Shown one piece after another: positions 6,664 to 59,752 of a stretch of DNA of 64,000 bases. A program made the translations under genes and the position numbers. Numbering within the stretch: position 1 is the first letter of the stretch; each line of letters opens with the position of its first letter. The stretch is from a virus. The notes beneath the pieces were generated by a model. It had not been told where the DNA came from. It searched no databases and was given only the letters and a program-made list of their open reading frames with translations. The DNA lies in the IMG/VR virus record IMGVR_UViG_3300011113_000257, positions 32,001-96,000 of that record; one strand, 5' to 3'.

Positions 6664-6864
6664 AGTATTCCTTTGTTGAGGTTGTGCCTTGTATCTATTG
6701 TAAGACACAACTCAACTTCCTAGTTCTCTCTAATAGAGAGTAACGCAAGGCTAACCGCGTTAAGACCGAAAGCAAGTGTTAGCAAGTCTTTGCCTAACAT
6801 TGCCGAAACTACTGCCAATACCCCCGCGCCGAGCGAGGCTACTGCCACCCAAATAATTTCAGTT

Positions 6865-9936: not shown

Positions 9937-10858
9937 CTAGACTTCGTAGTCAATCGCGTCATCCCAGAGCAGGTCTTTAAGTTCATTTTCATACTTTGCT
10001 GAGTTCCAACCATTAGTTTTTTCCGAGATGTCTTCCTCATCAACAATCGAATCTAAAGACAAAACTGCCGTGTAGCCGTCATCCTCAAACATAATAATTA
10101 ACTTAGTGTCATCTCTTTCCGCGTCATCAACGATAGCAACAACAAAGGACTCGCCCGTACGATTAGTGTGGTACGCGCTCTGGAGAATTTCTAGTCTGCT
10201 CATAGCAAAAACATTACCGCATCCTTAGAAAGGCTATTTTTGCTTAAAAAACCTACTTAAAAACAGTAGTGAGCCTGTCGCTTAGGTTTACTATCTTGAC
10301 TATCTTGCTAGTGTTGTCTGGATTAAGTTCCCTAATCAACGCACTAGCCTTTGGATTATTGACCGCACTAAGTTGCTTATGGGCGTAGGCAATAGCCAGC
10401 CCCAAAGAGGTTTGAGTTCTACTCTCGAACGGAGGCTTTATTTCTTTGCCCTTCGAGGTCATTAGTGATACTGAATACTTCATACCTTTAGTCTACCTAA
10501 AAGATTTCATTTGTCAAGTTAATCAAAATACTCAATAACTACCGCGCCCACGAAAGAAACCGCGCCAACTATAAGGGTTGCTACCAAGTAAGTAGGCGTT
10601 ATCACTACTGGCTTTAGCAGACCGATAAACATAAGTTGTAGTTCTAGTAGTGCTAAAGGCAATGAGCCAATAGCAACAAAAGTTAAAACATCCCGTAAGT
10701 GGAATAGAAACATCTCTTAGACCTCCCACTCTCTGTAGCAATCTTGGCAAACCCAATCGAGGGTTATCCAATCGGTGCTTGACGGTGAAACATTAAAACC
10801 ACCGCGAACTGAATCTCCGCACTGTGGACACTGATGTGATTCCTTAAACTTTAACATC
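9937..10858 (-). CDS. Four small hypothetical genes (9937-10203, 10253-10483, 10519-10713, 10717-about 10858 Zn ribbon)
   Basis: Each has an RBS or a leaderless promoter. Confidence 0.6.
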
Positions 10859-10929
10859 TTGCTCTCCTTTTTATCGCCCCTTGCGATAGTTCTATCATAA
10901 CACAAGTCTCTGACCTTTGTCAAGTTAAA

Positions 10930-11056
10930 CGCTAGACGCGCCACCGAAAGGGGATAAGGTGACGCGCCTAACATTTATGAGTGGGGAGAAAGGGGGGGCA
11001 ACCCCACTCGTATTCGGAGCATAGGGAGAAGGGAGAAAACCCTCGCTCTACGAACT
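10930..11056 (-). ncRNA. Candidate three-hairpin small RNA with anti-Shine-Dalgarno loops
   Basis: Extended -10 TGCTAAAGT at 11062-11070; three stems with loops TTTTCTCCCTTCT, TTGCCCCCCCTTTCT and TTATCCCCTTTC; no ORF. Confidence 0.7.
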
Positions 11057-11204
11057 CCTCTACTTTAGCATAAAAAAATTTCAGTTATGCCTCCGTGTCG
11101 GAAAATTTAACAATCCCCACAAACTGACTTACTCGAAACCTTTTTCGAGTCAAGCCCAAACCTTTTACCGCATCTCCAACAATTAGTAAAGATAGTCACT
11201 ACCC

Positions 11205-11935
11205 TCACTCCCCAATCTCTGGAATGTCGTAGTCGTTCTGCCAACCGCACTTAGGGCAAGTCCAAACACCGCGCCCCCAGTCGTCAAAAGATACTTCCTC
11301 TGTACCCTCAAACTTGCAGTCAATCTCCGCGCCTGACTGAAACTCAATAATGCCTTTGCACTCTAGGTCATCAATCTCTGCTGAATCCGCGTAGAATCCT
11401 GAACCTCTTAGTGAACCTTCGTAACTCATTTTGTTTCCCTTCTTCTATCGCCCCTTGCGATAAATCTATTTAACCACATAATCTGACTAATGTCAAGTTA
11501 CTTGATAACTGTGCCTGTCCAACCCTCTGGAATTGAGTATTTAGTTTTTAGTGCCGTGTGAAAAGTGTCCACAACTATCTGACAAACACCGTCTAGTATC
11601 TCGTCACTCATTCCGTCAAGGTATGTCCGCAAGTTTTCCTGCAACTGTTCTTGCAATTCAAAAGTATTCATCTTGTTCTCCTTTCAAGAGTAAAGTTCCC
11701 CAACCCTAAATTTCCAAAACATCTAGGGGTGGGGAATCCTTTATTTGTCGTTGATACCTAACAAAGCGAAAATTTCATCTTCGTTCAAGACAGTAACCTT
11801 GTCGCCACTATCATCAACAATTTTTACGCTAGTTACACGGTAAGAGTTAGCAACCAAGTCACGAACTTCTTGCGCCGTGTTAGCGGTAAAACTGTACTCG
11901 TTATCTTTCGACTTCATTGTTACGTTGTAAGCCAT
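11205..11935 (-). CDS. Three small hypothetical genes (11205-11429, about 11500-11671, 11741-11935)
   Basis: Strong RBSs GAAGGGA and GAAAGGAG before each ATG. Confidence 0.65.
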
Positions 11936-12152: not shown

Positions 12153-12188
12153 GACCCTAGTCTATCATACTAGGTTTGCTTTCGCAAG

Positions 12189-12267
12189 TCCCAAGAGTAG
12201 GAATCGAACCTACCGTGCCAAAGCGAGTGATTTACAGTCACCTTCCCCACCTTGAGGAATCCTTGGG
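12189..12267 (-). tRNA. tRNA-Tyr (GUA), atypical
   Basis: Acceptor CCCAAGG/TCTTGGG+A, anticodon loop CTGTAAA, T-arm GTAGG-TTCGATT-CCTAC, long variable loop; own promoter about 12286-12316; no encoded CCA. Confidence 0.8.
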
Positions 12268-12624
12268 GTTATTTAGTTATGGAACTAGTTTATCATACTA
12301 GTTATCTTTTTGCAAGTTCTTCGATTAATCTTGTTCGGCGTACAACATCTTTCGTACTCCAACCTTGACCAATCTCCGCGCAAGACTCCAAGTAGTAATC
12401 TAAGTCCTGAATTTCATCGTGAAGTTCGTTCACGGTGAGTTCCTCTACTGGTTTGTTTCTTGTAAGCATCTTTGCCCCTTTCGTTCCTCAAGTGTACAAC
12501 ACTTTCCTGACAAATGCAAGTCACGGGAAAAGATAATTTAGCGAAGGCGGGACTCAGAATAAAAAATTTCAGTTTTACCAAAAAAGAAAACCCCCGCAAT
12601 GCGCGAGGGCTTTCCATTTTTAGA

Positions 12625-13466
12625 TTAGTAGTTTTCGTTCACCCAATCCACAACGTCTTGCATTTTATCCGCGCTACGCGCTACCGCTAGAAAGTTTTCA
12701 TCTTCTAGTAATAGGCTTTCGTGAACAGTGGTCTCACCTGCTACGAAACCCAGTACGACTCTTAGATTAAGAGTTGATAGTAGTTGTCCTGTTGCCATTT
12801 TTTCACCCCTTTCCGTGTGATAACACGAGTCTATCATACCTACCTGACATTTGCAACCCTAACGCCCGAGCGTGGTGGGGCTAGTTGCCCCCACCACCGC
12901 ATTCGCCATCGGCGAATTCGAGACAACCGCCACAGCAGTCGTCACAAGTACGCACCCAGATAACATCTAGGGCAGGAATGTGTAGAGTTGAGTGAGTTGA
13001 GGTTGTGTTGCAGAATTGGCATTTGGACATTTGAAACCCCTTTAGGTTTAGTATCAAGACCCCTTGCCTTGATGAATCAAGTCTATCATACCTACCTGAC
13101 ATTTGCAAGCACATAAGAAAACCCCCTCCGTAGAGGGGGCTTTCCAAAGGGGTCGCGCTAGACGTTAAATAGTTTTTGCACGGCGGTTAGTGCCTTTATG
13201 TCTTTACCACCAATGTGCCAATCGTATTGACCGTAGTTAATTCCGCTTTCGTAGTTCTTCCAGTCGTAGATACTCGCGACAAATACTTCGCCAGTTGTTT
13301 CATCTTCAAACTTTAGCAACCATTCTGCCTGTACTTTATCTTCGGTATAGCCCAAGTAGTGTGGCTCTCCCAACTTTTCTACGATAGTCGCGTAGGTTGT
13401 TCTTACATAACCAAGTAGGAAAGTTCCGCTTGTGTCTACAGAATTACTTTTTTCTATGAGTTTCAT
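12625..13466 (-). CDS. Three single-gene cassettes (12625-about 12798, 12881-about 13030, 13158-13466)
   Basis: Each has a TGTCAG promoter, 5' hairpin and AAAGGG RBS; the last carries an ASIYDWK..WHIGG motif. Confidence 0.65.
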
Positions 13467-13624
13467 TTTTTCTCCCTTTCGTGGTATTTCCACTACCTAA
13501 AGTAAACCACTTTATCTGACAAAAGTCAAATCAAATTAAATCCCGCGTGTCCCTAAAAAATTTCAGTTTTACGTTCCCGCACAAAAAAAATAACCCACCC
13601 CGTAGGGTGGGCTACTTTTGTAGA

Positions 13625-14821: not shown

Positions 14822-15144
14822 TTGCTTCCCTTTCTCTGTGGTACTTCCACTAAAAAATAATAACACATCTCCCTGACATTTGCAAATTATCTTTTCCGCG
14901 TGTCCCCTGACCTAAAAAATTTCAGTTATCTAACTCAGCGCAAAAAGAACCCCGCACTTTCGCACGGGGAACTTTTTGTTTGGTTAAAGTATTTCTCCTA
15001 CTGTTGCTTCCTCGCAAGGGTCGCAAATCCAACCCTCTACTCCGTGCTGGTCAAAAGGAATCATAGTGTCCTTGCATTCAACGCATACAACGTATTTTGT
15101 CCCGTCTGTAGACGTAGCAACTAAACTATCTAATGCGTTCATCT

Positions 15145-19297: not shown

Positions 19298-21656
19298 TTA
19301 TTCGACTTCGTTATCCGCAAGGATTTGCTTGACGGCTTCAATCGCTTCCTCTAGAGTTTCGCAAACTTCCCACCACTCATCGTCAGCCTTTGGCTCATAG
19401 AACTCAAACCAATTATTATTCACCCAGACATCTTGCTCTGCGTGTGCCGTGTTGAACTCTGCCAACTTCGTGTCCGTGTCAATCCCTGCGGAGATTAGGT
19501 CGCTTGTGTAACGCCAGACATCTCCGTTAGGTAGGTTGATACGCATCTCGCCGTTAGACCCAATGTGAAACTCTCGGTCGCCCGACTTAACTACGGCTAG
19601 AACTTCCCAGCCGTTAGTCCAGCAATAGAACGCCGAGTCTGTCTGCTCTGGGTTCTGCTCTACTAAATACTCAACCGTGTAATCCATCACGCCACCTAGT
19701 CCTCGTCTGACTCAACTCGGACACCGCAAGTAAAACACTTTAAGTTTTCCCAGTCAGGGTACTCGTAGCAAGTATCGTGGATACAGTCGTTAGTATCGAA
19801 CACCGCGCCAAGTAGTTCCAACAAACCGTCAAGGTACTCTACGGGGAACGCTTTCATCTCGCCGTACTTTGACGGTAAGGAAACAACTCCCGACATAATG
19901 TCCTCTGAAAGTTCCGCAAGAAAGTCAAACTGCTCTTGCAACATTTCATAGTCAATGTTTTTCATTTTGTTTTCTCCCCATTGAGTTCTAGCAACACCGC
20001 ATTTAGAGTGTCGTAAAGTTCTTCGTCTTTTGCGTAGTTCGCATCATTGTCAATCGCGTGAGTCCACTCATTTGTTGCCGTGTCGTAAACAGTTCCGTCA
20101 AAGTAACGAGTTTCATTTTCAATGTTCCACTTGCCTGTTTCGGTATCGAAACACACTACATAGTGATGCTGTGTAGTTGAGGGGTAGTAACCCTGCTCGC
20201 CTTCACAAGTTTTGCAGAACGGTGTGCAGTCGAAACCGCCCCCGTGTTCTGGACACTCAACCATTTCTAGTTTGCTCATTTTGTTTCCCTTTCTTAGAGT
20301 GAGTCCCTCTCGCTCTATGATAAGTATACGCCCCTAGCCTGACATTTGTCAAATCAGGGGCGCACACCGCGTGTTACCAATTCAGTTCTTCGCCATTCTC
20401 GTCTTGGAAGATTAAGTCACTCGTATCTGCCGTGTGACCCCAACCGCAACTAAAGTCATTCTCAATCCACACTTCAACTCTCTGCATAATGTCCCACAGG
20501 GTTATTTCACTATGTGGAGTTTCAGTTTCCGCGTGTATGTCGTTAGCAATCTGGTTTACGTCATACGAGACAACTTTCATCACGTTAATGCGTTCTGGTA
20601 ATTCTCTCATTATTTCTCCATTCCGTGTCCAACGTGGACTAATCTAATTTCTGGCTCGCCGACTTCGATTCCCCAGCCATTCTTTAGTAGTTCTAATGCT
20701 TCTTCTTCGCTAGTGCAAAGTTTAAGATTCTTAGAGTCAATCTCTAATGTCTTGATTACTTGAAACTCGTAACGCATTTGGTTTCCCTTCCTTAGCAAGC
20801 CCTTCTTGCTAATAACTCTATGATACATCAATACCCTGACATTTGCAACTTGAACACGAAATTATCTTTTCCCGTGCCTTCGCTGAGTTCCGCATAAAAA
20901 ATTTCAGTTTTGTGAAACCAAGAAACCCCTAGCCTTTCGGCTAAGGGCATCTTTTGGATTAGGCGGTGATTAGTCCCTCGTCTATCAAGGTGCTGGCAAT
21001 TCTGCCGTAAGAACCTTGCAGTTGCCACGCTAGTCGCGTATCAACTAGTTGCTGAAACAAGTTAATTGTTTCTTCTCTGTCAAGATTACCTTCTTCGAAC
21101 TCGATGATTAAGTTCGTGATGTCGTGTAGTGACATTTGCTTCCCTTTCGTATTCGCCGTACTTCGGCTTATGTAGTAAGGATACACTAAACCCCTGACAT
21201 TTGTCAAGGGCTTAGTGTCCCGTGTCTTTAGTCTTCTTCTTCGTACTCATCTTCGTCTTCGTCTTCGTCTTCGTCTTCGTCTTCACGGCATCTGTCGCAG
21301 ATTGAGTCATAGTCCGCGCCAGACTCGCCACATAGTTGGCAAAACTCGTCTTCGTATCCCTGTGGGATTATGCTTTCGTATCCCTCGTTAGGGTCGTCCT
21401 CGTTAGTTGCTACTGATTGCACAAACTTTAGCCCGCAAGAGCCTTCGTACCAACGCTTGACTAGGGTAAGCATTTCGTCAGGGGTTGAGTCGGTAACAAG
21501 GAAACTTCCGTCCTCGCCATAGCCCCACTCTGCACTCTGCTTGACTTGCTGGTCGTCTTTCAAGATGTAAATCTTGTGACAACCATCAAACGAGATGCCT
21601 TTGGCTTCGTCAAGTTCTGCCTTAACTTCGTCCCAGATGTCTTGGAAAGTAGTCAT
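19298..21656 (-). CDS. Run of small acidic hypothetical genes (19298-19690, 19696-19965, 19962-20279, 20374-20610, 20610-about 20777, 20959-about 21135, 21228-21656)
   Basis: ORF track and RBSs; the last gene ends in a poly-Asp/Glu tract encoded by (GTCTTC)n at about 21250-21285. Confidence 0.65.
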
Positions 21657-21889
21657 TTTGATTTCCCTTTCTATCAGTAAGCCTTTCTTGCTGATAAAAC
21701 TATCATACCACACTATCCTGACATTACCTAATCGGGGCTTTAGCGCGTGTCGCAGAAAAAATTTCAGTTATCTAAAATTACGAAACCCGTACCAAAAAAA
21801 TTTCAGTACGGGCTTCGCTTAGAAACTGTCGGAAGGCTGACACACGCTGGAAGGACGATACCCCCCGACAGGGCTTATGGGTTATTCAA

Positions 21890-23698
21890 TTATCCGTTAC
21901 GGTTTCCCATAGCGGTTAGTGCTTTCGCACACGCTTGTCCGATAGCGTTGGACGCTTCCGTTGGAGAAGCCACACCGCTTAACGGCTCTACCGTTGTCCC
22001 CCTTAGGAGACTTCTGGCACTTGAACCGTTGTCGAACGGTATCCATACTACCGCCACGCCGTTGCTCTCACACTGCGACACCCAACTCCGAGCCTTTTGG
22101 GTCTCGTCGTAAGTGTACACGCCGTCGGATACCACGACTAAAAGCCTAGCACCGTCACCGTTGAGCAGGTTCAACTCGCCGTCTATTGCCTTGAACGCCT
22201 TGTCAAACTTTTCCGTACCGTCTGGTGCTGTGTACACCGTTACGTCCGTTAAGTGCTGACCAGACTTGAGCGTAGGGAACACGTCGTCGCCGTAGTACAC
22301 CATCGCGCACTTGCCTTGGACTCGCCGAGTTGCTTCCGACATTACCCACGCCGTTGTCGCCATCGGTTGCATCGCCGAATTCATCGAACCGCTAATGTCT
22401 ACCATCACGCCGACCTTTAGTGTTGGCTCGTCCGTTGTCTTACGGACTCGCTTACGCCAAGGTTGCGCCGTTGGTTGCATACCTATCGCCTTGTGTGCTT
22501 CGTTCTGCATAGCCGAGCGAGTTCGTAGCCGTCCACCGGGAACAATGCTACGCACTTCAACAACATCGCGCTCGCGATACTTTGCACGCTCTAATGCGCT
22601 CGCCACTTTCACCGCGCTGATACGCTCGTCTGCCGTAGGCTTACGAACCTCTGTTGCATAACTACGAGTACGAGTAGATGCTGATGGACCAGTACCTCGC
22701 CCGAAAACTTCTTGAGCAACTTTAACATTCTCACGACTTTGCTTTGCACTGTCCGCGCGATTCTTAACTTCCTCTTTCCATTCCTCTGACTCCTCTTGGT
22801 CTGCAAGTTCGGAGTAGTTAGACACCGCAACATTTTCAGATGCTTCTTTCAACTTCTCAAGTAACTCTTTTAATGCTTCGCCAACTTCAGATGTAGACTC
22901 ACCACTTCCACCAGAAGTACTTTCACTACCAGAATTATCCTCGCCACGTTCGTTTGCAAGGTCGCGAACAATCTGTGCCCACTCACGCGCTAATGGATAA
23001 ACAGGTTCCATGTTTCGATGGTCTGTGTGTGTAATGAAACGCTCGATAACACTGCATAACTTTTCAACAGTTTCGTTGCCTAAGTATTCCTCTATAAATT
23101 CTGTAACCTCTAGAACATCATCACGCTCTAAAATTCCACCAATGATTCGACCATGCACTAGTCCAACTAAAGTTGCAATGTTTGAAACACTACCCTGTGT
23201 CAAATCCTCTGACTCAAAATCTGCAATAACAATTTCCATTGCACTTGAGCATAGAAATGCGCGATACCGAGCATCAAGCAAAATACCTTGTGCTTCGATT
23301 CGTGATTCCTCAAGAAGCATTAGTGCTTCGTACTCGTCTGACTTTAATGCTTCGTAAGCAGACTCTAAACTCCACTTCGAGAAACGAGCGTGAAATGCTT
23401 CGTGCATTATCGCGCCAGTTGCCTTTGGAAATTCGTACTGCGTTGAGCGTTGATTAATGTCGCTAATGTGTTCTGGCTTAATGCCAAACCCGAAAGCAAT
23501 TTCTGTGTTCACTTCAATTTCTGCAATCGCTGGCTTGTAGCACGCTGGCGCATTGCTACCTGCAACAGGAGATGCAAGTCCAACTAAATCACCGCGACCT
23601 GCGATTGAGTTTGCTAGTTGCGCAATCTGCGAACCAACTGCATACCATTCTGGATGTCTTTCACCAGAAGTCTTACTGTGTGTGTCAATGTGTGCCAT
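21890..23698 (-). CDS. VWA-domain protein with HExxH metallopeptidase-like N-terminus (CobT-like)
   Basis: HEAFH, LEESRIE; MIDAS DISGSM, GT, VVVSDG; start set by RBS GGAAGGAG. Confidence 0.85.
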   Translation of the reverse strand: MAHIDTHSKTSGERHPEWYAVGSQIAQLANSIAGRGDLVGLASPVAGSNAPACYKPAIAEIEVNTEIAFGFGIKPEHISDINQRSTQYEFPKATGAIMHEAFHARFSKWSLESAYEALKSDEYEALMLLEESRIEAQGILLDARYRAFLCSSAMEIVIADFESEDLTQGSVSNIATLVGLVHGRIIGGILERDDVLEVTEFIEEYLGNETVEKLCSVIERFITHTDHRNMEPVYPLAREWAQIVRDLANERGEDNSGSESTSGGSGESTSEVGEALKELLEKLKEASENVAVSNYSELADQEESEEWKEEVKNRADSAKQSRENVKVAQEVFGRGTGPSASTRTRSYATEVRKPTADERISAVKVASALERAKYRERDVVEVRSIVPGGRLRTRSAMQNEAHKAIGMQPTAQPWRKRVRKTTDEPTLKVGVMVDISGSMNSAMQPMATTAWVMSEATRRVQGKCAMVYYGDDVFPTLKSGQHLTDVTVYTAPDGTEKFDKAFKAIDGELNLLNGDGARLLVVVSDGVYTYDETQKARSWVSQCESNGVAVVWIPFDNGSSARSLLRGTTVEPLSGVASPTEASNAIGQACAKALTAMGNRNG

Positions 23699-23835
23699 CT
23701 CTGGCTCCTTCCTTTTGTACGCCCCTTTGACGTACTCTGTGAGTTTATCATACCTTCTTGATATTTCCAAATTGAAGGGTGGGGAGTCGGGAAACACTCA
23801 CGAAAACCGACTCCCCTTAGCAAGGATGAAAGGGA

Positions 23836-24867
23836 CTAAATCCTTGCTGGCTTGTATTCCGCACCAAACACGCGAGACAGAACATCTGCCACGATTGGTC
23901 TGTCCATCTCTGGTGCAGAAGCAAGTAAGTTCGAGATACCAAACGGAACCCCGAATGTTGTAACGATGTCGCGGAACGCTAAAAGTTCGCGCATCTGTGG
24001 AGCCCACGAGACTTCACCAGACTCTTGTTTCTTAGCAAGATTCTGCGCAACAGTAACGAGGTTGCTAGGTACACCTAAGGTGCGAGCAAGTGACCAGTCA
24101 GTTGCCATCTCTGCTTGAACAGTAAAGCGAGATAGTAAGGCTTCTGAAAGTCGTACTCCCGGAGCATTAGGGTTAGTTGCACCCACAACATAAAAGTCAG
24201 GGTGAACCTTAACAGTACCTCTGTCAGGATTAGCAGTGACAGTAATTTCGCCACGTCCATCCATCACGCCATACAAACCTGAAAGTTGCTTAGGGTCAAT
24301 CAGACCAATCTCGTCAATGAACAAGACTGCACCTTCCTCTACTGCTCGCACAAGTGGACCATCTACCCACTCGAAACCACCAGCAGGATTCTGTACGAAC
24401 CCACCAAGGAAGTCTGACATTTCGATGTCAGCAGTTCCAAGTACTGTGTACATATTTCCACCAAACGCTGCTTCGACTAATGCAGTCTTACCAGTTCCCG
24501 GTGCGCCATAAAGCAACGCGAACATTGGCGAGCCAACTTTGTCTGTGACAGACAAGGTAGTTGCTTCACGAGCCTTGCGTAATGTTGCAACATCTTGATG
24601 TTCACCCCAAGTACGAGCGTGGTACACACTTCCATTTGGACGAATGTATTGACTACTACTTGATTCAAGTGTGACACCTGATGTTGTAATTGGTGTCGCT
24701 ACGCGAGCAACGCGAGGTGCGCGTTCTACGAAACGACCTTGTGGTAAAACCTGCGAGATTACTCTCATAGATGCTTCTGTTGATACTGACTGCGCAACCA
24801 TGTCGTCTAACATGGAAGTGAATTCAGTTCCCCACTTTGAATAAATTTCATTTTCTTTGATGCTCAT
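23836..24867 (-). CDS. MoxR/CobS-type AAA+ ATPase
   Basis: Walker A GAPGTGKT, WVDGPL, Walker B LFIDEI, ATNP, LSEALLSRF. Confidence 0.9.
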   Translation of the reverse strand: MSIKENEIYSKWGTEFTSMLDDMVAQSVSTEASMRVISQVLPQGRFVERAPRVARVATPITTSGVTLESSSSQYIRPNGSVYHARTWGEHQDVATLRKAREATTLSVTDKVGSPMFALLYGAPGTGKTALVEAAFGGNMYTVLGTADIEMSDFLGGFVQNPAGGFEWVDGPLVRAVEEGAVLFIDEIGLIDPKQLSGLYGVMDGRGEITVTANPDRGTVKVHPDFYVVGATNPNAPGVRLSEALLSRFTVQAEMATDWSLARTLGVPSNLVTVAQNLAKKQESGEVSWAPQMRELLAFRDIVTTFGVPFGISNLLASAPEMDRPIVADVLSRVFGAEYKPARI

Positions 24868-24883
24868 AATTTTCAGTCCCTTT

Positions 24884-25351
24884 CTACGCTGTGAACATTT
24901 CTGGATAAGATAATGCAGTTCGAGTCTGGTTGATTCGATGCACGACCTTAGTTGGAGTCTTACCTTCTGTTACATCTGTCAAGTCTTTCTGTGAAACTTC
25001 CACAAAAAATGGCTTGCCAATAAGTACGCTACTAATTGAAACGCGCTTCATAAACCACGCTAGTGTTTGAAGTCGCTCCTCGCGATGGTTCTCTGATGTA
25101 ACCCCTGTTGCTGGGTCTACGAGACTACGCTGAAGTGCTTGCACCTTCCATTGTTTCTTTGGCTGTGATGCCGAAAGACGACGATAGTAGACACGCGCTG
25201 TCGAAAAATTTCCAAGTTCATTCCAACCATCTGGAGTAATGAACATCTGAAAAATCTGTTGGTATTCATTCTTGAATTCCGCGTACAAGGCTGTGCCCTG
25301 TACTTTCTTTTCTGGGTCTGTAAGCAGACCAAGAGGTGTTTCTGTTGACAT
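24884..25351 (-). CDS. Hypothetical protein, first gene of the MoxR operon
   Basis: RBS GAAAGGA; promoter TTGACT-N17-TAAACT at about 25398-25426. Confidence 0.7.
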   Translation of the reverse strand: MSTETPLGLLTDPEKKVQGTALYAEFKNEYQQIFQMFITPDGWNELGNFSTARVYYRRLSASQPKKQWKVQALQRSLVDPATGVTSENHREERLQTLAWFMKRVSISSVLIGKPFFVEVSQKDLTDVTEGKTPTKVVHRINQTRTALSYPEMFTA

Positions 25352-25475
25352 AGTGAGTATTTCCTTTCTTTATGTCTTTTGTCCCTGTGACATTTCTAGT
25401 TTAGCATAACGCTATGATGGAGTCAAATCGGGGTAGGAGTATGTCTAAGGAGACCTACCCCGACCTGACTTCTAA

Positions 25476-25808
25476 CTACTTAGCGACAATGATGTCGTAA
25501 GTAGAAACCTTTGAACAGGTTTCGTATGCTTCTGGATAAACTTCTTTCAGAAGCGTTGAGTCCACATTGGTGCGTGAACGTGGTGCAAGTTCCACTACTG
25601 GAAGCCCTGCGACAGTACCAACCTTGGCAGAACCAATTAGGTCACGAATTGCGCTGTCAAGTTCTGACTTTGCTTTTTCGAGTTCCTTGATTGCAAGTTT
25701 TGCGTTAGCAAAATCTGCAAGCAGGTTCGCGATGTTGGTGTTGTCCAATTCAACGGTGGACGTTTCCGTGACAACCTGTGTTGTCGTTACCTGTGTGCGT
25801 ATGCTCAC
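25476..25808 (-). CDS. Hypothetical coiled-coil protein resembling the C-terminal region of YqaJ-type proteins
   Basis: R..VD...LK..YPE.Y motif; GTG start after GAAAGGGG. Confidence 0.55.
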   Translation of the reverse strand: MSIRTQVTTTQVVTETSTVELDNTNIANLLADFANAKLAIKELEKAKSELDSAIRDLIGSAKVGTVAGLPVVELAPRSRTNVDSTLLKEVYPEAYETCSKVSTYDIIVAK

Positions 25809-26122
25809 TTTGGCGATTCCCCTTTCAAGGAAAGTTCGATAGACCATCTAACGAACAGTTCTAACTTTACGCCCTACACCTGACATTTGTCAAATCGAGC
25901 GTTTCCACCCCGATTTCTCGGGCTGTTTTCGTTCATAGAACCAATGTAACACATTACCCTGACATCCGCAAGTTTATTTGATAACGATTTGATAACGGAC
26001 CGGGAACTGAAATTTTTTAGTTCCGGGTTGTTGAAGGCGGGCTCCAATAAAAAATTTCACTTTTGGGCAAAAAGAAACCCCCGTTCGAAACTCACTGGTT
26101 TCGATTTAACGGGGGTTGGTCT

Positions 26123-26311
26123 TTAGAGTTCTTGCTCCCACTTTTCGATGTCAAACATTTCCCAGATTTCATCATCTGTGAAATTTTCCTTCAACCAAAT
26201 AGCGGTGCGCTTTTGGACTACTGGGTTTTCGTCTACTGGCTTAGCAGTTCCGAAGATGCTACCCATAAGGGCTTGGTATGCGTGTGCGTTTGCTTCATGC
26301 GGTTTGTTCAT
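26123..26311 (-). CDS. Hypothetical protein
   Basis: Promoter embedded in the end of the upstream gene; AGGAG before ATG. Confidence 0.6.
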   Translation of the reverse strand: MNKPHEANAHAYQALMGSIFGTAKPVDENPVVQKRTAIWLKENFTDDEIWEMFDIEKWEQEL

Positions 26312-26772
26312 ACTCCTACGGTAACACGAGGCACTGACATTTCTTCAGGTGTCCAAATGTAGGGGAGGTCACTTGGCGTATCGGGAAAAAATTCAGAGTA
26401 GTACTCAGGGGCTTTGCGCAAGAGATTCGAGCGGTGCGATTCGTGGAACCGTGAGTTCCCGATGAACCAAGGCAAGCCTTCGTACCGCTTACCTTGCACC
26501 GTTAGGTCTCGCATCTTCTCGATGAAGTACGGTAGCAGGTTGTCGACATACCCTCTCCGTTTCCACTCCAGCGACATTATTGAACCGTAGTACGCGAGTG
26601 CGAACTCGTGCCCACGCCACATCTTGGTCGCAGGGTGGTTGACCCAACCCGTTGTCTCGCCGTTGAGCGCCATCAGTATTTGCTTGGTCTCAACCCGTTG
26701 CTTCCCGAGCCGTCGGTAGTCCAATACCCTCGCCGTCTTTTCAAAATCGGCGTATGGCAGGAACGTCTGCAT
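26308..26772 (-). CDS. Pyrimidine-dimer DNA glycosylase-like (MSMEG_6728 family)
   Basis: MQTFLPY..LD..RLGKQRVE, HPA.KMWRG, SHRSNLLRK and LPYIW motifs. Confidence 0.82.
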   Translation of the reverse strand: MQTFLPYADFEKTARVLDYRRLGKQRVETKQILMALNGETTGWVNHPATKMWRGHEFALAYYGSIMSLEWKRRGYVDNLLPYFIEKMRDLTVQGKRYEGLPWFIGNSRFHESHRSNLLRKAPEYYSEFFPDTPSDLPYIWTPEEMSVPRVTVGV

Positions 26773-27893
26773 TAGCCCTCGCCGTTCTCTCGAACTAGCG
26801 CGATGGCTCTCGCCATGCCTGCAGACCAACCGTCGTTAAACGCGACATCCGTCTCGTCCATTTCCTCAGCGTCCGTCATGTCTTCTTCGGTTACCCGTTC
26901 CCACTCCTCCATTAAAATTTCTAATAGTGTCATGTGGTCACGCCCGCTAACGCCCACGCCTTCTTGAGGTCGCGGTCGAAGTCGCGTTGCAACTTATCCC
27001 ACGCCGTTTCGTCAAAAAGGATTGGGTGCGCCTCTTGCTTATTTCTGCTAAGCACTCGCCGTATAAAAGATTTCAGTTCCGTGTAGTTCATGTTCTTGCT
27101 CCTCCTTTGTTTTGCGGGGCACGCCGTGTGCCTCGCCGTCGTGATGTATTAACTTTATGATAAAAGTTTCTAGATGTCAAGCGCGTACTCTGGGAGTTCC
27201 ATCCCTGCCCCAACTAACGCGCGCCGTATTAAACCTTGCTGACGCGAAGTTGTCTGCGAGTATTTATCTACGTTCAGATAAGTAACCTGACGTTTTTCTG
27301 TGTTTATACTAGCCATCCGTGTTGAGTAAGAGTAGATGTCGTAGATGATGTCGCCACCAGCGTCGCACCATTTCGAGGCTCTCATGCTGTGACCGTGCTT
27401 GAATGGTTTGAATGCTGGAATAAATTCTTCTGCAATTTCTTTGTAACTAGGCATTTTTATTTCCCTTCCCGTTGATGTGTCTCACCAACAAGAACCATTC
27501 TATCATACCAACCTGACATTCGCAACTTAAGGCACGCCATTAGATTTCTTCAGTGTCTTCCATTAGTTCAGGAAGATTTTCCTCAACCATCTCCCAGAAG
27601 GTATCAAAAATTTCGATATTCTCTCGAACCTCTTCAACGGGTGCATCGTATTCAATGGTAACGATTTCGTGGACGTGCTCTTCGTCTTCCTCAACGTGGT
27701 GAGTTCGAAACACATAGTCACCGTCTTCGGTGATTAGGTAATTAATAAACATCACGGAGCACTCAGATGTGAGCGCGACTTGGTATGTCTCGGTTAGGGG
27801 GTCGTAGATAGGACAGCAAGCAGAAATGATGTCGTGCATGTAGTGCCCTTTTTTGATGACACGGCTTGGGTGAATGTTGTTCGGTTTGTTCAT
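26772..27893 (-). CDS. Small hypothetical genes (26772-about 26933, about 26938-27091, 27170-27454, 27540-27893)
   Basis: 27170-27454 has YSYST..YSQTTSRQQ; cassette promoters at 27512 and 27916. Confidence 0.6.
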
Positions 27894-28284
27894 ACTAGCA
27901 GTATTGCACATCCGTCTGACATTTCCAAATCGGGCTCAGGGCACACCGTTTAAAAAATTTCAGTTTTGAGTTTGCACGGATGGATTTTGCGGTCCTAGCC
28001 CGGAAAATATAAAAAGGAGGCGGGTGGCCTGGGCGGCTCTTCCAGGCTAAGCGGTTTAACCGTTTAAAAGATTGCGTCAACAATCAGGGCGGCTAGAATA
28101 AGCGCCCCGAGAAATGCAAAAGGAAATTTAAACTCGCTCATCGGTCATCTCGGCGGTCAGCATCTTAACCAGTTCCGTTGCGCGGTTGGCTCTTGCGGTT
28201 ACGCGGATGTGCTCTTCGCGGGTCTTCGCAAGCGGGATGTCTGCGGTTAGGTCACGGGCTAATTCTTCGGCGACTGCTAATAAG

Positions 28285-29268
28285 TTATTTGTCATCAGGG
28301 CTCGCCGCCTGGTCTTCTGAGGCTGCATCCGTTATTATATTTTCCGGGCGGTCATCAGGATTGGATACAATCACGGCATCCGTTATCTCGTAGGTGGCTA
28401 CATCCGTTGGTGTTTCTTCCGGGGACAGGACGCTATAAACGCTCGCCGCTCCTGCAGCAAGCCGTTGCAATCTTTCAGCAACAATGACATGTGGCGGTCG
28501 CGCATCGTTGACTTCGACATCAACGCTAAGTTCCATTCCTCCGCGCACGCCCGCACGGTCGAGAATCTCCGTCGCCGCTTTTAACTTAACGGGTTCAGAC
28601 TCAGCGTTCTCCATCATATCTTCTAGAACGTCGACTGCATACGGTGCGGCTTGGATGAGTTTGCGTCTCGCCCGTTCTACATCTTCGCCCGGTTTGCGGA
28701 CGGACTTTAAGTGGGCTCGGCACAAGCCGTCATCTTTGAGGCGACCAGATGCCCACAACATACAGCGCAAGCCGTCATCCTTGATAGTTCGGCATCGCGT
28801 CGGGAGAACTGCGGGTTGCTTTCTTTCGCTCGCCGTTGGTTCGTTTTGTTCCGCTACCCACTTACGGGTCGCGCCGATAACCCAAGGCGGAGAAATCTTC
28901 ATGGCGTTGTCATCAAGCAGGAGGTCAACACCCGTTAGGTAATCTGAATTATTATTTGAACCGTCAACTAAAAGCGGTCGCTTCTCAACGAGTGAGAGGA
29001 CACGCCGTTCGCGCATTGCCTCTGGAGACCGTGCGGCTATCATACCCGTTGGGTTACCCGTTGCGTCGTAAACGGAATCCCAGTTGTAATGGGCTCGCCG
29101 TAATAGGGAGCGGTTGTCGTAGGTGTCGTCGCACACGCCCCGTTCGTGCTCTATGATACCGAGTTCGGAAAGGTCGGGGCGTAGGTCTAGCGGTGTATCA
29201 AGGCGTGGCGCTCTATCCGTTGGGTCATCTTTGGGACCCTCGGAATCAAACTTTATAACTTCTGTCAT
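28285..29268 (-). CDS. Zn-finger plus helical-domain protein, possible terminase small subunit
   Basis: C..C..C..H finger followed by AVDVLEDMM..VKLKAATEILDRAG. Confidence 0.45.
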   Translation of the reverse strand: MTEVIKFDSEGPKDDPTDRAPRLDTPLDLRPDLSELGIIEHERGVCDDTYDNRSLLRRAHYNWDSVYDATGNPTGMIAARSPEAMRERRVLSLVEKRPLLVDGSNNNSDYLTGVDLLLDDNAMKISPPWVIGATRKWVAEQNEPTASERKQPAVLPTRCRTIKDDGLRCMLWASGRLKDDGLCRAHLKSVRKPGEDVERARRKLIQAAPYAVDVLEDMMENAESEPVKLKAATEILDRAGVRGGMELSVDVEVNDARPPHVIVAERLQRLAAGAASVYSVLSPEETPTDVATYEITDAVIVSNPDDRPENIITDAASEDQAASPDDK

Positions 29269-29383
29269 GCCTCGCCGTTCAATAAAAAATTTCAGTTATC
29301 GTCTCACAATGTGGAACGATTGCTCGCCGTTAAAAAATTTCAGTTTTGCGGGCGGGGAAGCCGCCGCTGCCTGGAAGTTGTAA

Positions 29384-29599
29384 CTATTTTTTCTTGGGGG
29401 CGGGAGTCGCCGTCTTCTTTTTGGCAGGTGCCTTTTTAGCCGGGGCTTTCTTGGCTGGTGCCTTTGTTGCGGATGGTGCAACAACTGGGGCTGGGGCTGG
29501 GGTGGTGTCTAGGAAACGACCCTTTTTGTCGCGTGGCATTTTCTCGGCGGCTTTGCGTCGTGCGCGGGAGCCAAGAAGTTCTTTTAATTTTTTAAGCAT
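29384..29599 (-). CDS. Small basic histone-H1-like protein
   Basis: PAKKA repeats; PRDKKGRF. Confidence 0.6.
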   Translation of the reverse strand: MLKKLKELLGSRARRKAAEKMPRDKKGRFLDTTPAPAPVVAPSATKAPAKKAPAKKAPAKKKTATPAPKKK

Positions 29600-29612
29600 T
29601 GGGAGTTCCGTT

Positions 29613-29834
29613 CTAGTTCTTTGTGATGGAGGCGGAGTTTGAGTCGCCGACCTGTGTGGATGCGATACTGGACAAAACGGACAAAAGGGCAGCGCCGAGG
29701 GAAACCTTTAGGGTGTCTACGGTTGCGATGGTAAAGATGCCAGCCATGTCTGAACCGACAAGGGCAATGAAGGTTTGGGCAAAGGTTTTAATCGCTCTTT
29801 CGGCGAGGTCGTTCAAGAACTTTTTATTATACAT
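29613..29834 (-). CDS. Holin, r1t family
   Basis: AERAIKTFAQT and ALLSVLSSIAS motifs. Confidence 0.82.
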   Translation of the reverse strand: MYNKKFLNDLAERAIKTFAQTFIALVGSDMAGIFTIATVDTLKVSLGAALLSVLSSIASTQVGDSNSASITKN

Positions 29835-30150
29835 AAAATGTCTCCGTTGTCAAATCCAGCGTGTGTATCTTTTATAACGATTAGATAACAAGATGATAAC
29901 GGTTTAAATCTCGGACGATTTTTTTGGCGCGTGGAGAGAGTGGCGAGCCGTTTTGCCCCTTCTATAAAGAGAACCCCATAAAATAAGGGTTTTCTAGTAA
30001 CTAAGTATTATACACTTTTAGCCCTAAAAAAGTGTTTATATTTGGGCGTGTCGCATCACTTTTCTGGGTTCAGAACTGCCCAGACTGCCCAAGCACAGAC
30101 TCCAACACCGATAGCCAATCCGACAACTAATCCAACTAGAAACTCAAACA

Positions 30151-31009
30151 TTAGACTTCCTCTCTACATTCCTGACATAATAAAGCATCATACCCTGTTG
30201 CGTATGACGTGGCGTGTCCGCTCTTAGTTACAGGAACGGGAGTCACAATCTCGTCAACTTTTCCGCATCTGTCGCACTTCAAATCAACAATCCATTCTGC
30301 TGATTTACCTGACATTATCAAGGCACTCAATCCGCGACTCAAGGCGTGCATAGCCCCACCACCCACAGTCCTGCGTAGGAATGCGCGAGTATCGTCAACT
30401 TCTAGAACTGCTCTAGGAGATTTGCAAGGGCAGTCCAACCGAGAAGGCTTACACATAATTTCCCCAGCAATTTCCTTATGTCGTGACATTCCGTGCCCAC
30501 AGATACAGATTCGGCTATCCCTGACTTTTCCCCTCTGCTTGTGAGCATTGTCGGTTATTACTGCCATATCAGGGTCAACCCCAATGGCTATCAAAGCATT
30601 TCTTGCACTGTCGTCAGTCGTCATAATTTTCCATTTCTTTGGATAGGTTTTCCGCAATCTCGATAAAAGTCATTTCATCCTCGATGCTCTTTTTTAACTC
30701 GGAGTAGAGCCCTAGCATGGCTTGCGTTTTCTTAAAATTAAGGTATGATGTATAGCCCACCACAGCCAGTCCTGCACCCAAAAAGGCACTCAGTCCTACG
30801 AGCAAATATTCCATCAACTAATCCCCATCTCTAGTCTCCAACAATACTTCCTTAACCCCGTGACTGTCAAGCAGTGACTTCACAACTTCCTTAGCCTTGA
30901 CTTCCCATCTGTCTTTTTCTTCCTGACTTAAATCATTCATACCATTTGGGAACCAATATCTCAGGGTATCGTCCACGAAATTCTCGTAGGCTCGCTTCAT
31001 CCGACTCAC
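30151..31009 (-). CDS. Three hypothetical genes (30151-about 30624 Cys-rich, 30614-30817 membrane-anchored, 30818-31009)
   Basis: Contiguous ORFs; CICGH..H..C..C.C motif. Confidence 0.6.
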
Positions 31010-31020
31010 ACTAACTCCTT

Positions 31021-31380
31021 AAAGTTATCCACAGGCGCACCCTGATTCCAACTATAGTACCGACTATAACATAAAAAAACTAAACATTAAACATAAAACA
31101 TAAAAGTCAACTATATTTTACCAACCCCCCTAAGCGCACGCATACGCGCGTATGGAAAATATAGTTAACTTTTATGTATGGTGTATAGTTATTTTAGTGT
31201 TACTAGTCAGATTATTTTATCCGAAAATATTTTTTTCTGCTAGTAACTTACCACTTCGACTCATTTCGACCCGAAACTAAACATTAAAAAACCATACACT
31301 ATAAACCATACACTAAACATAAAAGTCGACTATATTTCCCAGACCAAAATCACAAATCCAACACAAAGTTATCCACAGCC
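31021..31380. other. Putative replication origin: AT-rich, iterons, two DnaA boxes
   Basis: TTATCCACA at 31025 and 31369; ACATAAAAGTYRACTATATTT at 31098, 31157 (inverted) and 31317; lies at a divergent strand switch. Confidence 0.55.
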
Positions 31381-31445
31381 CTTACCTCAAAAATTGCCAC
31401 ATCACCCCCCTTGACAGACCCAAATCCAAGGAGTAACCTACCGAT

Positions 31446-31754
31446 ATGAATTCTGAAATATACCTGACTCTTGAAGAGTACAACGATTTTGTGTCACAGG
31501 CACATGCTCAATATATGATAAACCGTCTGCAACATACTCCGTCAGACACCTACAAAAAGTATCATCCGTCTGACCTTGCAATCGAAACCGCATCATTCTT
31601 TGAAGCGTCCTATTTAGTGCTTGACTCCTATCTAGATATAATCACAGCACGACTACGCGCAGAGAGAGAAGCAAAACAAGAACCCGTAGAACCATTCTTT
31701 GACCACAAACCAACCAAGCCAAAGAAGGAAAGAAAGCAAGTAAAAGAGAAATGA
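31446..31754 (+). CDS. Hypothetical protein
   Basis: Leaderless promoter TTGACA-N17-TAACCT-N6-ATG. Confidence 0.65.
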   Translation: MNSEIYLTLEEYNDFVSQAHAQYMINRLQHTPSDTYKKYHPSDLAIETASFFEASYLVLDSYLDIITARLRAEREAKQEPVEPFFDHKPTKPKKERKQVKEK

Positions 31755-32237
31755 GATATTTAATGAAAAAAATTAAACTAATAAAAACCAACCGACTCCT
31801 AAAAAAGCACGTTGGTAAATCAACTTACTGGGATTAAGTAGGAGAACTAATGACACATATGATTTCGGTAGGGACACACGAATTATTACTAAACCTGTTT
31901 GAGGAAAAGATAGACCTAGAAACATTTAAGAATCTTTCTAATCTACCTGAAGAAGAACTCAACGCAATTTTAGAACTCTTATTAGAAACAGGTTGCTAAA
32001 ACTAATGTCTATGTTTCGCATATTTGTTTTAACTACGGCTACAGGATTGGCATGGCTTACTTTATTTAATCAGTTAAATAGAGAGACTATTATAAAAACT
32101 ACCCTGTTTTCATTATTTCTTTCTTTTGTATTATCTTTGATTAAGAACAAGCAACAAAAATAAATAAGCAATTCATTATATCCGCAACGACAAACAAAAT
32201 TGGACAATCAAAAAAGTCCAATAAAGAAAGGGCTTTT

Positions 32238-32528
32238 ATGCTTCTTAGAAAGTATATCGGAGAGACACTATTAAAAGAACGCACCAAGCAAGGAAGAACA
32301 CTAAGAGACGTATCTACTCAAGCAACTGTTTCTCTAGGATATCTATCTGAACTAGAAAGAGGTCTAAAGGAAGTTTCTTCTGAACTCTTAAATGCAATCT
32401 GCGAGGCTTTAGTTATAAGCCCCGTTGACCTGTTAATAGATGTAACTGCATCTATGAGCCAAGATTTAGGGAGGGAGTTGGATAATGAGTTATATTCCAT
32501 CAACCATAAAGAATCAATTAGTATCTAA
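32238..32528 (+). CDS. ClgR-like XRE HTH regulator
   Basis: LLR..IG..L..R..QGRTLRDVS..A.VSLGYLSELERG.KE.SSELL..IC.AL, near the actinobacterial ClgR consensus. Confidence 0.82.
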   Translation: MLLRKYIGETLLKERTKQGRTLRDVSTQATVSLGYLSELERGLKEVSSELLNAICEALVISPVDLLIDVTASMSQDLGRELDNELYSINHKESISI

Positions 32529-42444: not shown

Positions 42445-42482
42445 AACTTGACACCACTCTAGGCTTTTTGTAGCCTATACAT

Positions 42483-42662
42483 AGTTCTTGATGTATTAGG
42501 TGTTTTCTGCCAGTTCTACTAATACACCAAGACTTTTCGCAGAAATGTGGTTTGTTCTCCTTTCCTACATTTTTTTGGAAGCGGGTTGCTCCGCCACTTG
42601 CGAACACGGAGCATATATAAAAACCGCCCCACCGAATTTAATTCTGCGTAGGGCGGTTTATT
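42483..42662 (+). ncRNA. Candidate three-hairpin small RNA with anti-RBS loop, plus terminator
   Basis: Promoter TTGACA(42448)-N17-TAGCCT(42471); three stems; loop 2 is TTTGTTCTCCTTTC; terminator 42621-42663. Confidence 0.7.
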
Positions 42663-42671
42663 TATTAAGTT

Positions 42672-58249: not shown

Positions 58250-58738
58250 TTAGGGCTTCTTTCGAGAAGCCCTTTCTTTTTTCTTATTTTCACGGTCAGC
58301 GTGGTAAGCCTCTACAGCATTTGCGCTGGAGCGTCCACGCCAAGCAAAACCACATTCAGTGCAGGTAACTACTTTTGCGCGAGTCCAGCGTCCACCAGGC
58401 GGAAGTTTTTCAATAGATGTTGCTAACTTGCTAGGACGGGCAGTGCAGTAAGGACAGTTTGGCGGACGGTTACGTTTACGTTCTTCGCCATTGTAAGCCA
58501 CAGAGAGCGCTCTACGGAGTTCAATCTCGTCCTTGCCTCCCCAGATACCCCAAATCTCTCTGTGCTCCAGTGCCCATTGTAGGCAGTCCTTTCGAGCAGG
58601 ACAAGAGAAACATAAATTTTTTGCTTTATTTCTTTCTTCTGAATCCTTTGAATGGAACCATGTCATATATTTTTTGTTTTCTGGTTTTGCGCATAAAGCA
58701 TCGCGTTGCCAGTTAAGACTAATAGCAGGTTTCCACAT
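58250..58738 (-). CDS. whiB: WhiB-family regulator with C-terminal Zn ribbon
   Basis: W...A.C, AK.LC..CP....CL, GIWGG; extra CPYC...CTEC. Confidence 0.88.
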   Translation of the reverse strand: MWKPAISLNWQRDALCAKPENKKYMTWFHSKDSEERNKAKNLCFSCPARKDCLQWALEHREIWGIWGGKDEIELRRALSVAYNGEERKRNRPPNCPYCTARPSKLATSIEKLPPGGRWTRAKVVTCTECGFAWRGRSSANAVEAYHADRENKKKERASRKKP

Positions 58739-59452: not shown

Positions 59453-59752
59453 CTACAGCAACTTAAAATTAGTTATAGTCCGTAAAGGTATTCTTTTTTG
59501 ACTTCTTATATTGGACAGTTCTTTAGGGGATAGACCACCCCAAACACCAAAAGTTTCGTGATGTATGCCCCATTCAGCACAATCATTTATGTGAACACAG
59601 TTAGCGCATAACTTCTTAGCCAAATGCACATTAGTAAAGTTTGTGTCTATTTGTTCTGGGTCATCTTCGTCTGCAGAATAAAAAAGGTCTCCACCAACTT
59701 CTCTACAAATAGGAGTTTCAAATTCCCAAGGTTCGCGAAGTTTTTTACTCAA
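59453..59752 (-). CDS. whiB: WhiB-family regulator
   Basis: C, AKKLCANC....DC, E.FGVWGGLS. Confidence 0.88.
   Translation of the reverse strand: MSKKLREPWEFETPICREVGGDLFYSADEDDPEQIDTNFTNVHLAKKLCANCVHINDCAEWGIHHETFGVWGGLSPKELSNIRSQKRIPLRTITNFKLL

Follow-up and report, generated by a model that had tools for sequence, protein, structure and literature searches.

In cuckoo sRNAs, two to four hairpins lie side by side; their stems vary, every loop carries an anti-Shine-Dalgarno (anti-SD)-like CCUCCUCCC motif, and the last hairpin is the terminator (PMC4615179). The RNAs of this ar14/cuckoo group (NfeR1, CcsR1-4/RSs0680) are encoded in alphaproteobacterial chromosomes (Rhizobiales/Rhodobacterales). 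6C RNAs are defined by conserved runs of about six C in stem-loops; in these actinobacterial sRNAs, which include B11 of Mycobacterium tuberculosis, experiments have established that the C-rich loops pair without a chaperone with G-rich leader loops or unpaired tracts, often ribosome-binding sites (RBSs), and that the targets are thereby repressed (PMC6486639). The UCCC-motif sRNAs of Firmicutes expose UCCC or CU-rich loop sites, including one in the terminator loop, which bind SD regions (PMC4615179). Hairpins 7, 13, and 14 of Staphylococcus aureus RNAIII, RsaE/RoxS, and Listeria LhrC belong to this class. LhrC and RsaE harbor several exposed UCCC or CU-rich sites binding SD regions. Among phages, the loops of the c4 antisense RNA of P1 and P7 pair around the RBS of a phage mRNA and block its translation (PMC12197685). 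Phage-encoded regulatory RNAs have so far been described almost exclusively from enterobacterial phages and prophages, and actinophages are not mentioned in a 2025 review of phage-derived sRNAs (PMC12197685).

The RNA described here is encoded in a 64,000-nucleotide window, the whole stretch of DNA that was analysed, corresponding to bases 32001-96000 of a 110,857-bp IMG/VR viral contig with an estimated completeness of 83%. The window has a GC content of ~44% and encodes a portal protein, a large terminase, a primase, a ribonucleotide reductase, and a MoxR/CobS-like ATPase, as well as two WhiB-family proteins:

58511-58711, minus strand: WhiB-family gene (61.7 bits)
59519-59716, minus strand: WhiB-family gene (42.8 bits)

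Judged by the portal protein, the nearest named phage is DSL-LC01 (69% identity), a metagenome-assembled Actinomycetia phage (PMC10611076), followed by large Microbacterium and Arthrobacter phages (47-61% identity). Furthermore, the window DNA is seen again in riverine, lake, estuary, and drinking-water metagenomes. The two WhiB genes, the actinophage portal relatives, and the recurrence in freshwater metagenomes make a freshwater actinobacterium very probably the host. The genome is organised as cassettes with terminators between them, and a tRNA-Tyr (GTA) gene is located in the early region at 12188-12267 on the minus strand, ~1.1 kb from the sRNA. A single ORF of 3827 residues (positions 20885-32368 of the genome, minus strand) ends at window position 368, beside the portal and head genes; DSL-LC01 possesses a 9.9-kb ORF in the equivalent place. 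A candidate second small RNA is found at window 42478-42670 on the plus strand, with a long hairpin, a GUUCUCCUUUCC-bearing region, and a strong terminator, its fold reaching a z-score of only -2.55.

The sRNA locus covers positions 10927-11055 of the minus strand, where three consecutive hairpins would form an RNA with a predicted length of ~125 nt. From 5' to 3', its elements and those that frame it are the following:

11073-11086, minus strand: box AACTGAAATTTTTT, one of 23 genome copies, abutting the sRNA promoter
11062-11072, minus strand: extended -10 element TATGCTAAAGT (TRTGnTAnnnT; TGCTAAAGT at 11070-11062), no -35 hexamer being evident
11012-11055, minus strand: hairpin 1, composed of three short helices; loop of 13 nt, UUUUCUCCCUUCU, at 11039-11027
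10979-11009, minus strand: hairpin 2, stem of 8 bp; loop of 15 nt, UUGCCCCCCCUUUCU, at 11001-10987
10927-10976, minus strand: hairpin 3, putative terminator, a 13-bp core (10970-10933) with a 12-nt loop, UUAUCCCCUUUC, at 10957-10946
10894-10923, minus strand: next promoter, TTGACA-18-TATGAT with TG (11/12 matches), directly 3' of hairpin 3

Extended -10 elements of the TRTGnTAnnnT type are typical of actinobacterial SigA promoters. In the window copy, hairpin 1 begins seven bases on from TATGCTAAAGT, and the 5' end of the sRNA is predicted to lie near 11055; the promoter at 10894-10923 marks the 3' limit of the unit. The initial annotation, made from the sequence alone, had described three consecutive minus-strand stems following an extended -10 element, and these are present: the minus-strand fold has an energy of -63.6 kcal/mol and a z-score of -7.45, is matched by none of 200 shuffles, and finds agreement in 20 distinct homologues (see below). 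The plus strand of the same locus reaches a z-score of only -2.41. The 13-bp third stem contains, as had been noted, two G-U pairs, which on the plus strand would turn into A-C mismatches and thereby mark the minus strand, and these positions covary in the homologues. Hairpin 3 can be extended to 19-20 bp (10976-10927), with GCGUUUAAC as its tail. The loops are open in the structural ensemble, and opening them costs only 0.1-0.4 kcal/mol. Two reading frames were rejected as coding, an unconserved ORF of 85 residues (10717-10974) and a 15-codon ORF within the RNA that is missing from the other lineages. No ORF is conserved across the sRNA copies, and the true downstream start is the ATG at 10857, which has its own promoter and SD.

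Homologues were collected at 80 loci reached via the portal protein, with two DNA patterns in viral contigs and with one pattern in metagenome contigs. The copies were confirmed with a covariance model (R1), which was also run over whole related contigs. This yielded 24 copies, 20 of them distinct, from at least five lineages (A-E, the window copy belonging to lineage A), all of freshwater origin (phage contigs and lake metagenomes). In their alignment, 89.1% of the cells are paired, versus 35-51% in slid controls, and 17 of the 32 pairs are changed on both sides, values that none of 500 shuffles reaches. As an alignment fitted to a model leans toward that model, each distinct sequence was also folded alone, and the three-hairpin fold was recovered in 20 out of 20.

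The three hairpins share the same design. Hairpin 1 displays five pairs with double-sided changes, and its loop core, UUCUCCCUUC, is invariant but for one A in three lineage-A copies. All seven modelled pairs of hairpin 2 vary, six of them with double-sided changes, to the point that its stems are essentially unrelated between lineages (GAGUGGGG, GGAUAGG, GGAUGAGG, AAAGUGG, and GAGCGGG); its loop keeps YCCCUU(U) throughout. In hairpin 3, 99.2% of the cells are paired, and six pairs have double-sided changes. Its top five pairs, UCACC/GGUGR, consist of four invariant pairs and one U-G/U-A, and the positions of its G-U pairs alternate between G-U/G-C/A-U and U-G/U-A in the homologues. The loops, with the motifs CUCCCUUC, YCCCUUU, and UUAYYCCCUUUY over the copies, are CU-rich and the best-conserved part of the RNA, so that the refutation named at the outset, homologues with unconserved or CU-poor loops, does not apply. 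Between the window and two relatives (L007/L095), the RNA is ~95% identical and the flanking proteins ~70-73%. The gene and its structure can be regarded as real with high confidence.

Relatives missed by the R1 model possess an analogous unit at the syntenic place, ~8-9 kb upstream of the portal gene, with the same order of an extended -10 element, three hairpins, and the next promoter. These divergent units are located as follows:

L021, 1308-1436: divergent unit, lineage F
L022, 1222-1351: divergent unit, lineage F
L031, 195-323: divergent unit, lineage F
L036, 1185-1316: divergent unit, lineage G
L043, 1212-1343: divergent unit, lineage G
L077, ~190-320: divergent unit, lineage H

Lineage F displays the loops CUUCCCUUUCU and CUCCCU and a middle hairpin with a plain tetraloop. 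In lineage G, which also includes L044 and L048, the loops are AUUCCCUUC, CUACCCU/AUACCCUA, and CUCCCUA/UUCCCUA, and lineage H has the loop AGUUAUCCCCCUUUCAU. Stem changes are compensatory inside lineage F and inside lineage G. Comparing these loops with those of lineages A-E leaves YCCCU exposed in hairpin loops as the sole universal feature.

A second model (R2, 24 sequences) run on 1 Mb of related loci returned known copies only, being too specific to detect the F, G, and H variants, and generic detectors of an extended -10 followed by CCCU-loop hairpins were too brittle for counting them. No match to the locus was found by blastn in 50,697 GenBank phages, nor by R1 in DSL-LC01 over 20 kb on each side of the portal gene. 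A pattern scan of 185,579 prokaryote genomes gave eight hits and no host link; the hits (Bacteroides, Polynucleobacter, and others) were set aside as chance, consisting of the 20-22-nt pattern alone or having a weak model score. Five loop-1 pattern matches in viral contigs (L102, L103, and L106-L108) were likewise discarded as unrelated sequences.

Loops of the hairpin-3 type have also been observed on other structures. The MoxR-like ATPase gene has two hairpins at its end (window 23848-23781, minus strand). The first of them (23848-23819) has an unrelated stem and a 12-nt loop, UUAGUCCCUUUC, of the type UUAnnCCCUUUC also seen in sRNA hairpin 3; this loop contains the stop codon of the ATPase gene. 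Two related phage contigs harbor a different structured RNA on the plus strand (L098, 1501-1629, and L099, 1501-1629), composed of a long branched hairpin and then a terminator-like hairpin; its loop, CUUAYCCCCUUUG, has the loop-3 motif on an unrelated stem.

The signals that frame the RNA are conserved as well. A TRTGnTAnnnT element is located 8-11 nt 5' of hairpin 1 in all 20 distinct homologues, its flanks diverging, in the forms TATGCTAAAGT, TGTGCTAAAGT, TGTGATAGAGT, TATGCTAGGCT, and TGTGGTAAAGT across the lineages, and each lineage has a TTGACA promoter element 3' of the sRNA. The stem of hairpin 3 has 12-15 bp and precedes 4-6 U (mostly 5-6) in lineages B, C, and D; in lineage E, the U-run is interrupted or weak. 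The window and lineage A have UUU only, absorbed into the extended stem, and termination may therefore be less efficient in the window copy. The 12-nt loop of hairpin 3 exceeds the 3-8-nt loop limit of the terminator scanner. The conserved -10 element, the next promoter, and the U-run of lineages B-D support the initial view of a stand-alone minus-strand gene with CU-rich, anti-SD-like loops.

The AACTGAAATTTTTT box is found at the equivalent place, 5' of the -10 element, in lineages A and D and in one E copy (L134). Its 23 copies in the phage genome (at most one mismatch) are nearly all in the early region, between window positions 6851 and 29345 and mostly on the minus strand (e.g., 12561-12574, 13555-13568, and 14914-14927). 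They usually come after a terminator, 28-42 nt 5' of a TTGCAA/TTGACA promoter; at the sRNA gene, unlike this usual spacing, the box adjoins the -10 element directly. The box may serve as a regulator site or delimit cassettes.

No terminator separates the upstream genes (11429-11205 and 11195-11107) from the hairpins, and the 3' end of the upstream operon could therefore be a further source of the RNA. Contigs of a ~90% relative from a run guessed to be of RNA (X20) extend over most of a 4.5-kb stretch and are uninformative on sRNA expression. Since the transcripts of the upstream genes must end here, the hairpins might act purely in cis, as a 3' UTR, terminator cluster, or insulator of that operon. 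They would then keep transcription from running on into the next cassette and shield the 3' end of the mRNA, and would do nothing in trans; the genome is indeed made of terminator-separated cassettes, and hairpin 3 with its U-run is a putative terminator in most lineages. We consider this explanation very unlikely, however, as a promoter-like extended -10 element is found at a fixed distance in every lineage and the loop sequences are more conserved than the stems, which a terminator does not need. Moreover, ordinary terminators of this genome have 3-8-nt loops, and those of the sRNA have 12-15 nt, always with the same motif.

How does this RNA compare with the described families? At gathering thresholds, Rfam gave no match over the whole window. 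The best match of the region is ar14 (RF02344), full-length over model positions 1-123 but below threshold (24.6 bits versus a gathering score of 58.8, E 0.015), and it is obtained with the window's own lineage A copy only, the scanned lineage B, B', and D copies giving no match. As in the ar14/cuckoo RNAs, three adjacent hairpins with covarying stems carry a repeated pyrimidine loop motif (20/20 distinct sequences). The phage loops differ, however, in carrying YCCCUU(U), with CCUCCUCCC in no copy, and the RNA belongs to actinobacterial phages and not to alphaproteobacterial chromosomes; the two are most likely convergent, not homologous. 6C comes from the probable host phylum and also possesses C-rich hairpin loops. 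In contrast to 6C, the phage loops have 3-5 C (mostly 3-4) followed by U, 6-7 C being found only in loop 2 of lineage A, and the RNA has three hairpins and is phage-encoded. A search with the 6C model (RF01066), which the first reading of the locus had pointed to, gave no match in either the window region or four other lineage copies, with E values of up to 10 allowed. As functional analogues, 6C and the cuckoo RNAs were nevertheless rightly chosen, ar14 even being the best, though sub-threshold, Rfam match. The UCCC sRNAs resemble the phage sRNA in their SD-binding loops but come from another phylum and have no sequence homology to it; the LhrC match of a lineage D copy reaches 23 bits versus a gathering score of 110. 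Like c4, the RNA is small and phage-encoded, with loops predicted to pair with RBSs. c4, however, uses one specific site pair in its own operon (ant); for the phage sRNA, no unique target was found, its loops are generic anti-SD motifs, and it has no Rfam match.

Given the sub-threshold ar14 match, the absence of CCUCCUCCC, the different taxa, the lack of a 6C match, and the weak LhrC score, the sRNA represents a new RNA family, similar in anatomy to the SD-blocking sRNAs with C/U-rich loops and a member of none of them. It displays the features of that class: a unit of its own from promoter to terminator, as predicted, no conserved ORF, and accessible SD-complementary loops.

By analogy with these RNAs, the reading with the best support, to which we give somewhat better than even credence, is that the sRNA pairs with RBSs and blocks translation. 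We infer that its own extended -10 promoter drives transcription, that the RNA ends at hairpin 3, and that it acts in trans as a non-coding RNA of ~125 nt. Its three large, open YCCCUU(U) loops, a C-for-U variant of the 16S tail CCUCCUUUCU, would pair with G-rich purine tracts that are single-stranded in the 5' leaders of mRNAs, most likely without a chaperone, as modelled on the 6C, cuckoo, and UCCC sRNAs. Candidate sites are GGG-type SDs (GAAGGGA, AAAGGGG, and AAGGGAG), the AAGGG/AGGGA pentaloops located just 5' of many early-gene SDs, and possibly host mRNAs. By occupying these sites, the loops would compete with 30S subunits, and translation would be lowered.

The same RNA and pairing could instead be directed at host mRNAs with G-rich leaders, the phage sRNA taking the role of the host's C-rich-loop sRNAs, 6C among them; during takeover, this might serve, for example, to halt replication or growth. 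Overexpressed 6C stops growth, and dnaB and panD are hit via G-rich tracts of their leaders (PMC6486639). Lineage A loop 2, with its 6-7 consecutive C, and the lack of conservation of the phage-internal targets described below point in this direction. The C-run falls to 3-4 C in other lineages, however, the 6C model matched neither the window nor the four other copies, and the complementary motif is abundant in the leaders of the phage itself, so that a mainly host-directed regulator seems unlikely.

Complementarity to RBSs was analysed with an SD consensus and leader statistics derived from a heuristic set of 192 genes. The phage SD consensus is GAAAGG(A/G), AAGGGA, or AAGGAG. The 3' tail of actinobacterial 16S rRNA, CCUCCUUUCU, is complementary to it. 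All the loop-RBS matches initially reported are present: AGAAGGGAGAA at 11950-11940 and AAGGGAGAAAA at 13478-13468 for loop 1, a bulged fit at 12482-12472 for loop 2, and GAAAGGGGA at 25826-25818 together with AAAGGGG at 12475 and 12806 for loop 3. Only those of loop 1 exceed chance and those of loops 2 and 3 do not. The complement of the loop-1 core, AAGGGAGAA, has three occurrences outside the gene versus 0.59 expected, two of which are at RBSs; the loop-3 9-mer has one versus 0.55, which is chance level.

The loops pair far better with start regions than with intragenic windows, and so does the 16S tail. With the phage leaders, loops 2 and 3 pair no better than their composition-preserving shuffles; loop 1 has 16 strong leader hits against 8.5 ± 3.6 in its shuffles, 3/100 of which reach that number. 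With correction for accessibility, the best targets, both of loop 1, are the genes 11741-11935 (-14.7 kcal/mol) and 13158-13466 (-14.6 kcal/mol). The former is confined to lineage A, and the lineage B orthologues of the latter have GGA for GGG (AAAAGGAGAAAA). Leaders of the early region have better scores than the remaining leaders (p 0.0017); since the 16S tail shares this bias (p 0.0018; loop-minus-16S difference p 0.077, not significant), early-gene-specific targeting was rejected. These data support a generic anti-SD character of the loops. They are not, as initially described, a different anti-SD loop on each stem, being variants of a single YCCCUU(U) motif that resembles the 16S 3' tail with C replacing U. 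Similarly, the idea of several guides tuned to particular RBSs of this phage is not supported, given that loops 2 and 3 perform like their shuffles, that the best loop-1 targets are unconserved, and that the 16S tail favours early leaders as much.

Pairing is also challenged by hairpin 3, the UCACC/GGUGR apex and conserved 12-nt loop of which look more like a recognition site for a protein or a specific RNA than like a plain seed. The RNA might then be a decoy or 16S-tail mimic that, pairing with no mRNA, sequesters a protein recognising pyrimidine-rich or 16S-3'-tail-like RNA, its three loops allowing multivalent binding; candidates would be KH- or S1-domain factors (ribosomal protein S1, Era), a phage protein, or a factor acting in 16S 3'-end maturation. 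UCACCU and CCUUU are building blocks of the 16S 3' end too. This apex, with its UUAYYCCCUUUY loop, is conserved above a covarying lower stem, the 12-nt loop motif is repeated on the unrelated stems of 23848-23819 and L098/L099, and the specificity of the loops for phage leaders barely exceeds that of shuffled loops. Against such a decoy, the UCACC is hidden within a stable stem, no candidate binding protein was found, the genome being devoid of a CsrA homologue, and the well-studied RNAs of like anatomy (6C, cuckoo/NfeR1, LhrC, RsaE, and RNAIII) act by base-pairing (PMC6486639, PMC4615179). We therefore assign it a low probability.

Under the favoured RBS-blocking reading, hairpins in the leaders of the phage genes are candidate partners of the sRNA loops:

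10872-10888, minus strand: leader hairpin UAUCGC-AAGGG-GCGAUA of a 46-aa zinc-ribbon gene (ATG 10857)
5244, 5624, and 8900, plus strand: leader pentaloop hairpins
10882, 11456, 13065, 15879, 18130, 18563, 19158, 20804, and 23728, minus strand: leader pentaloop hairpins
Leader of the gene 11205-11429: a hairpin plus GAAGGGAAA

Lineages A, D, and E share the first of these hairpins, and pentaloop leader hairpins are found in every sRNA-bearing lineage. Nine pentaloops are AAGGG, and AGGGA, ACGGA, AAAGG, and AAGGC variants also occur. Their stems differ, and the pentaloop nearly always starts 24-30 nt before the start codon, directly 5' of the SD. CsrA was considered as a ligand of the A(N)GGA pentaloops and rejected, the phage genome encoding no homologue; to our knowledge, CsrA is generally absent from Actinobacteria. 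AAGGGA is enriched 19-fold and AAGGGG 13-fold in leaders relative to coding sequences, and AAGGG or AGGGA is found in 27 of 65 early-region leaders versus 11 of 127 elsewhere (Fisher p 1.8e-7). AAGGG and AGGGA are exact complements of the sRNA loop cores CCCUU and UCCCU, and they fit the sRNA loops better than the 16S tail, for which a G-U pair is needed. This makes the AAGGG leader hairpins a candidate partner motif for the CCCUU loops.

Leader and loop sequences may also vary together. The use of AAGGGG in leaders is 23:31 in lineages A and D, which have CCCC in loops 2 and 3, versus 9:58 in lineages B, C, and E, where loop 3 carries UCCC/UUCCC. These counts are pseudo-replicated and phylogenetically non-independent, and the association is therefore suggestive only, a lead. 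In a more specific version of the mechanism, which seems rather doubtful, the sRNA would be a 16S-tail mimic acting as a timer that shuts off translation of the early cassettes at the early-to-middle switch. On a single early leader, its loops would bind the AAGGG pentaloop, via a kissing contact, as well as the adjacent GGG-type SD. The sRNA would out-compete the ribosome because its C pairs where the 16S tail offers U, and the motifs of loops and leaders would evolve together from lineage to lineage (CCCC with AAGGGG, UCCC with AAGGGA).

The sRNA thus defines a well-supported RNA family that is absent from the catalogues and widespread among actinobacterial phages of fresh water. Alphaproteobacteria (cuckoo), Actinobacteria (6C), and Firmicutes (UCCC sRNAs) have each evolved a like anatomy independently. 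The loops of the sRNA and the AAGGG leader hairpins of the early cassettes form a concrete, testable RNA-RNA pair. If RBS blocking is true, phages would share this chaperone-free, multi-loop anti-SD strategy, for the timing of their own genes or for the takeover of host translation, and the RNA would provide a compact, portable translational repressor for actinobacteria.
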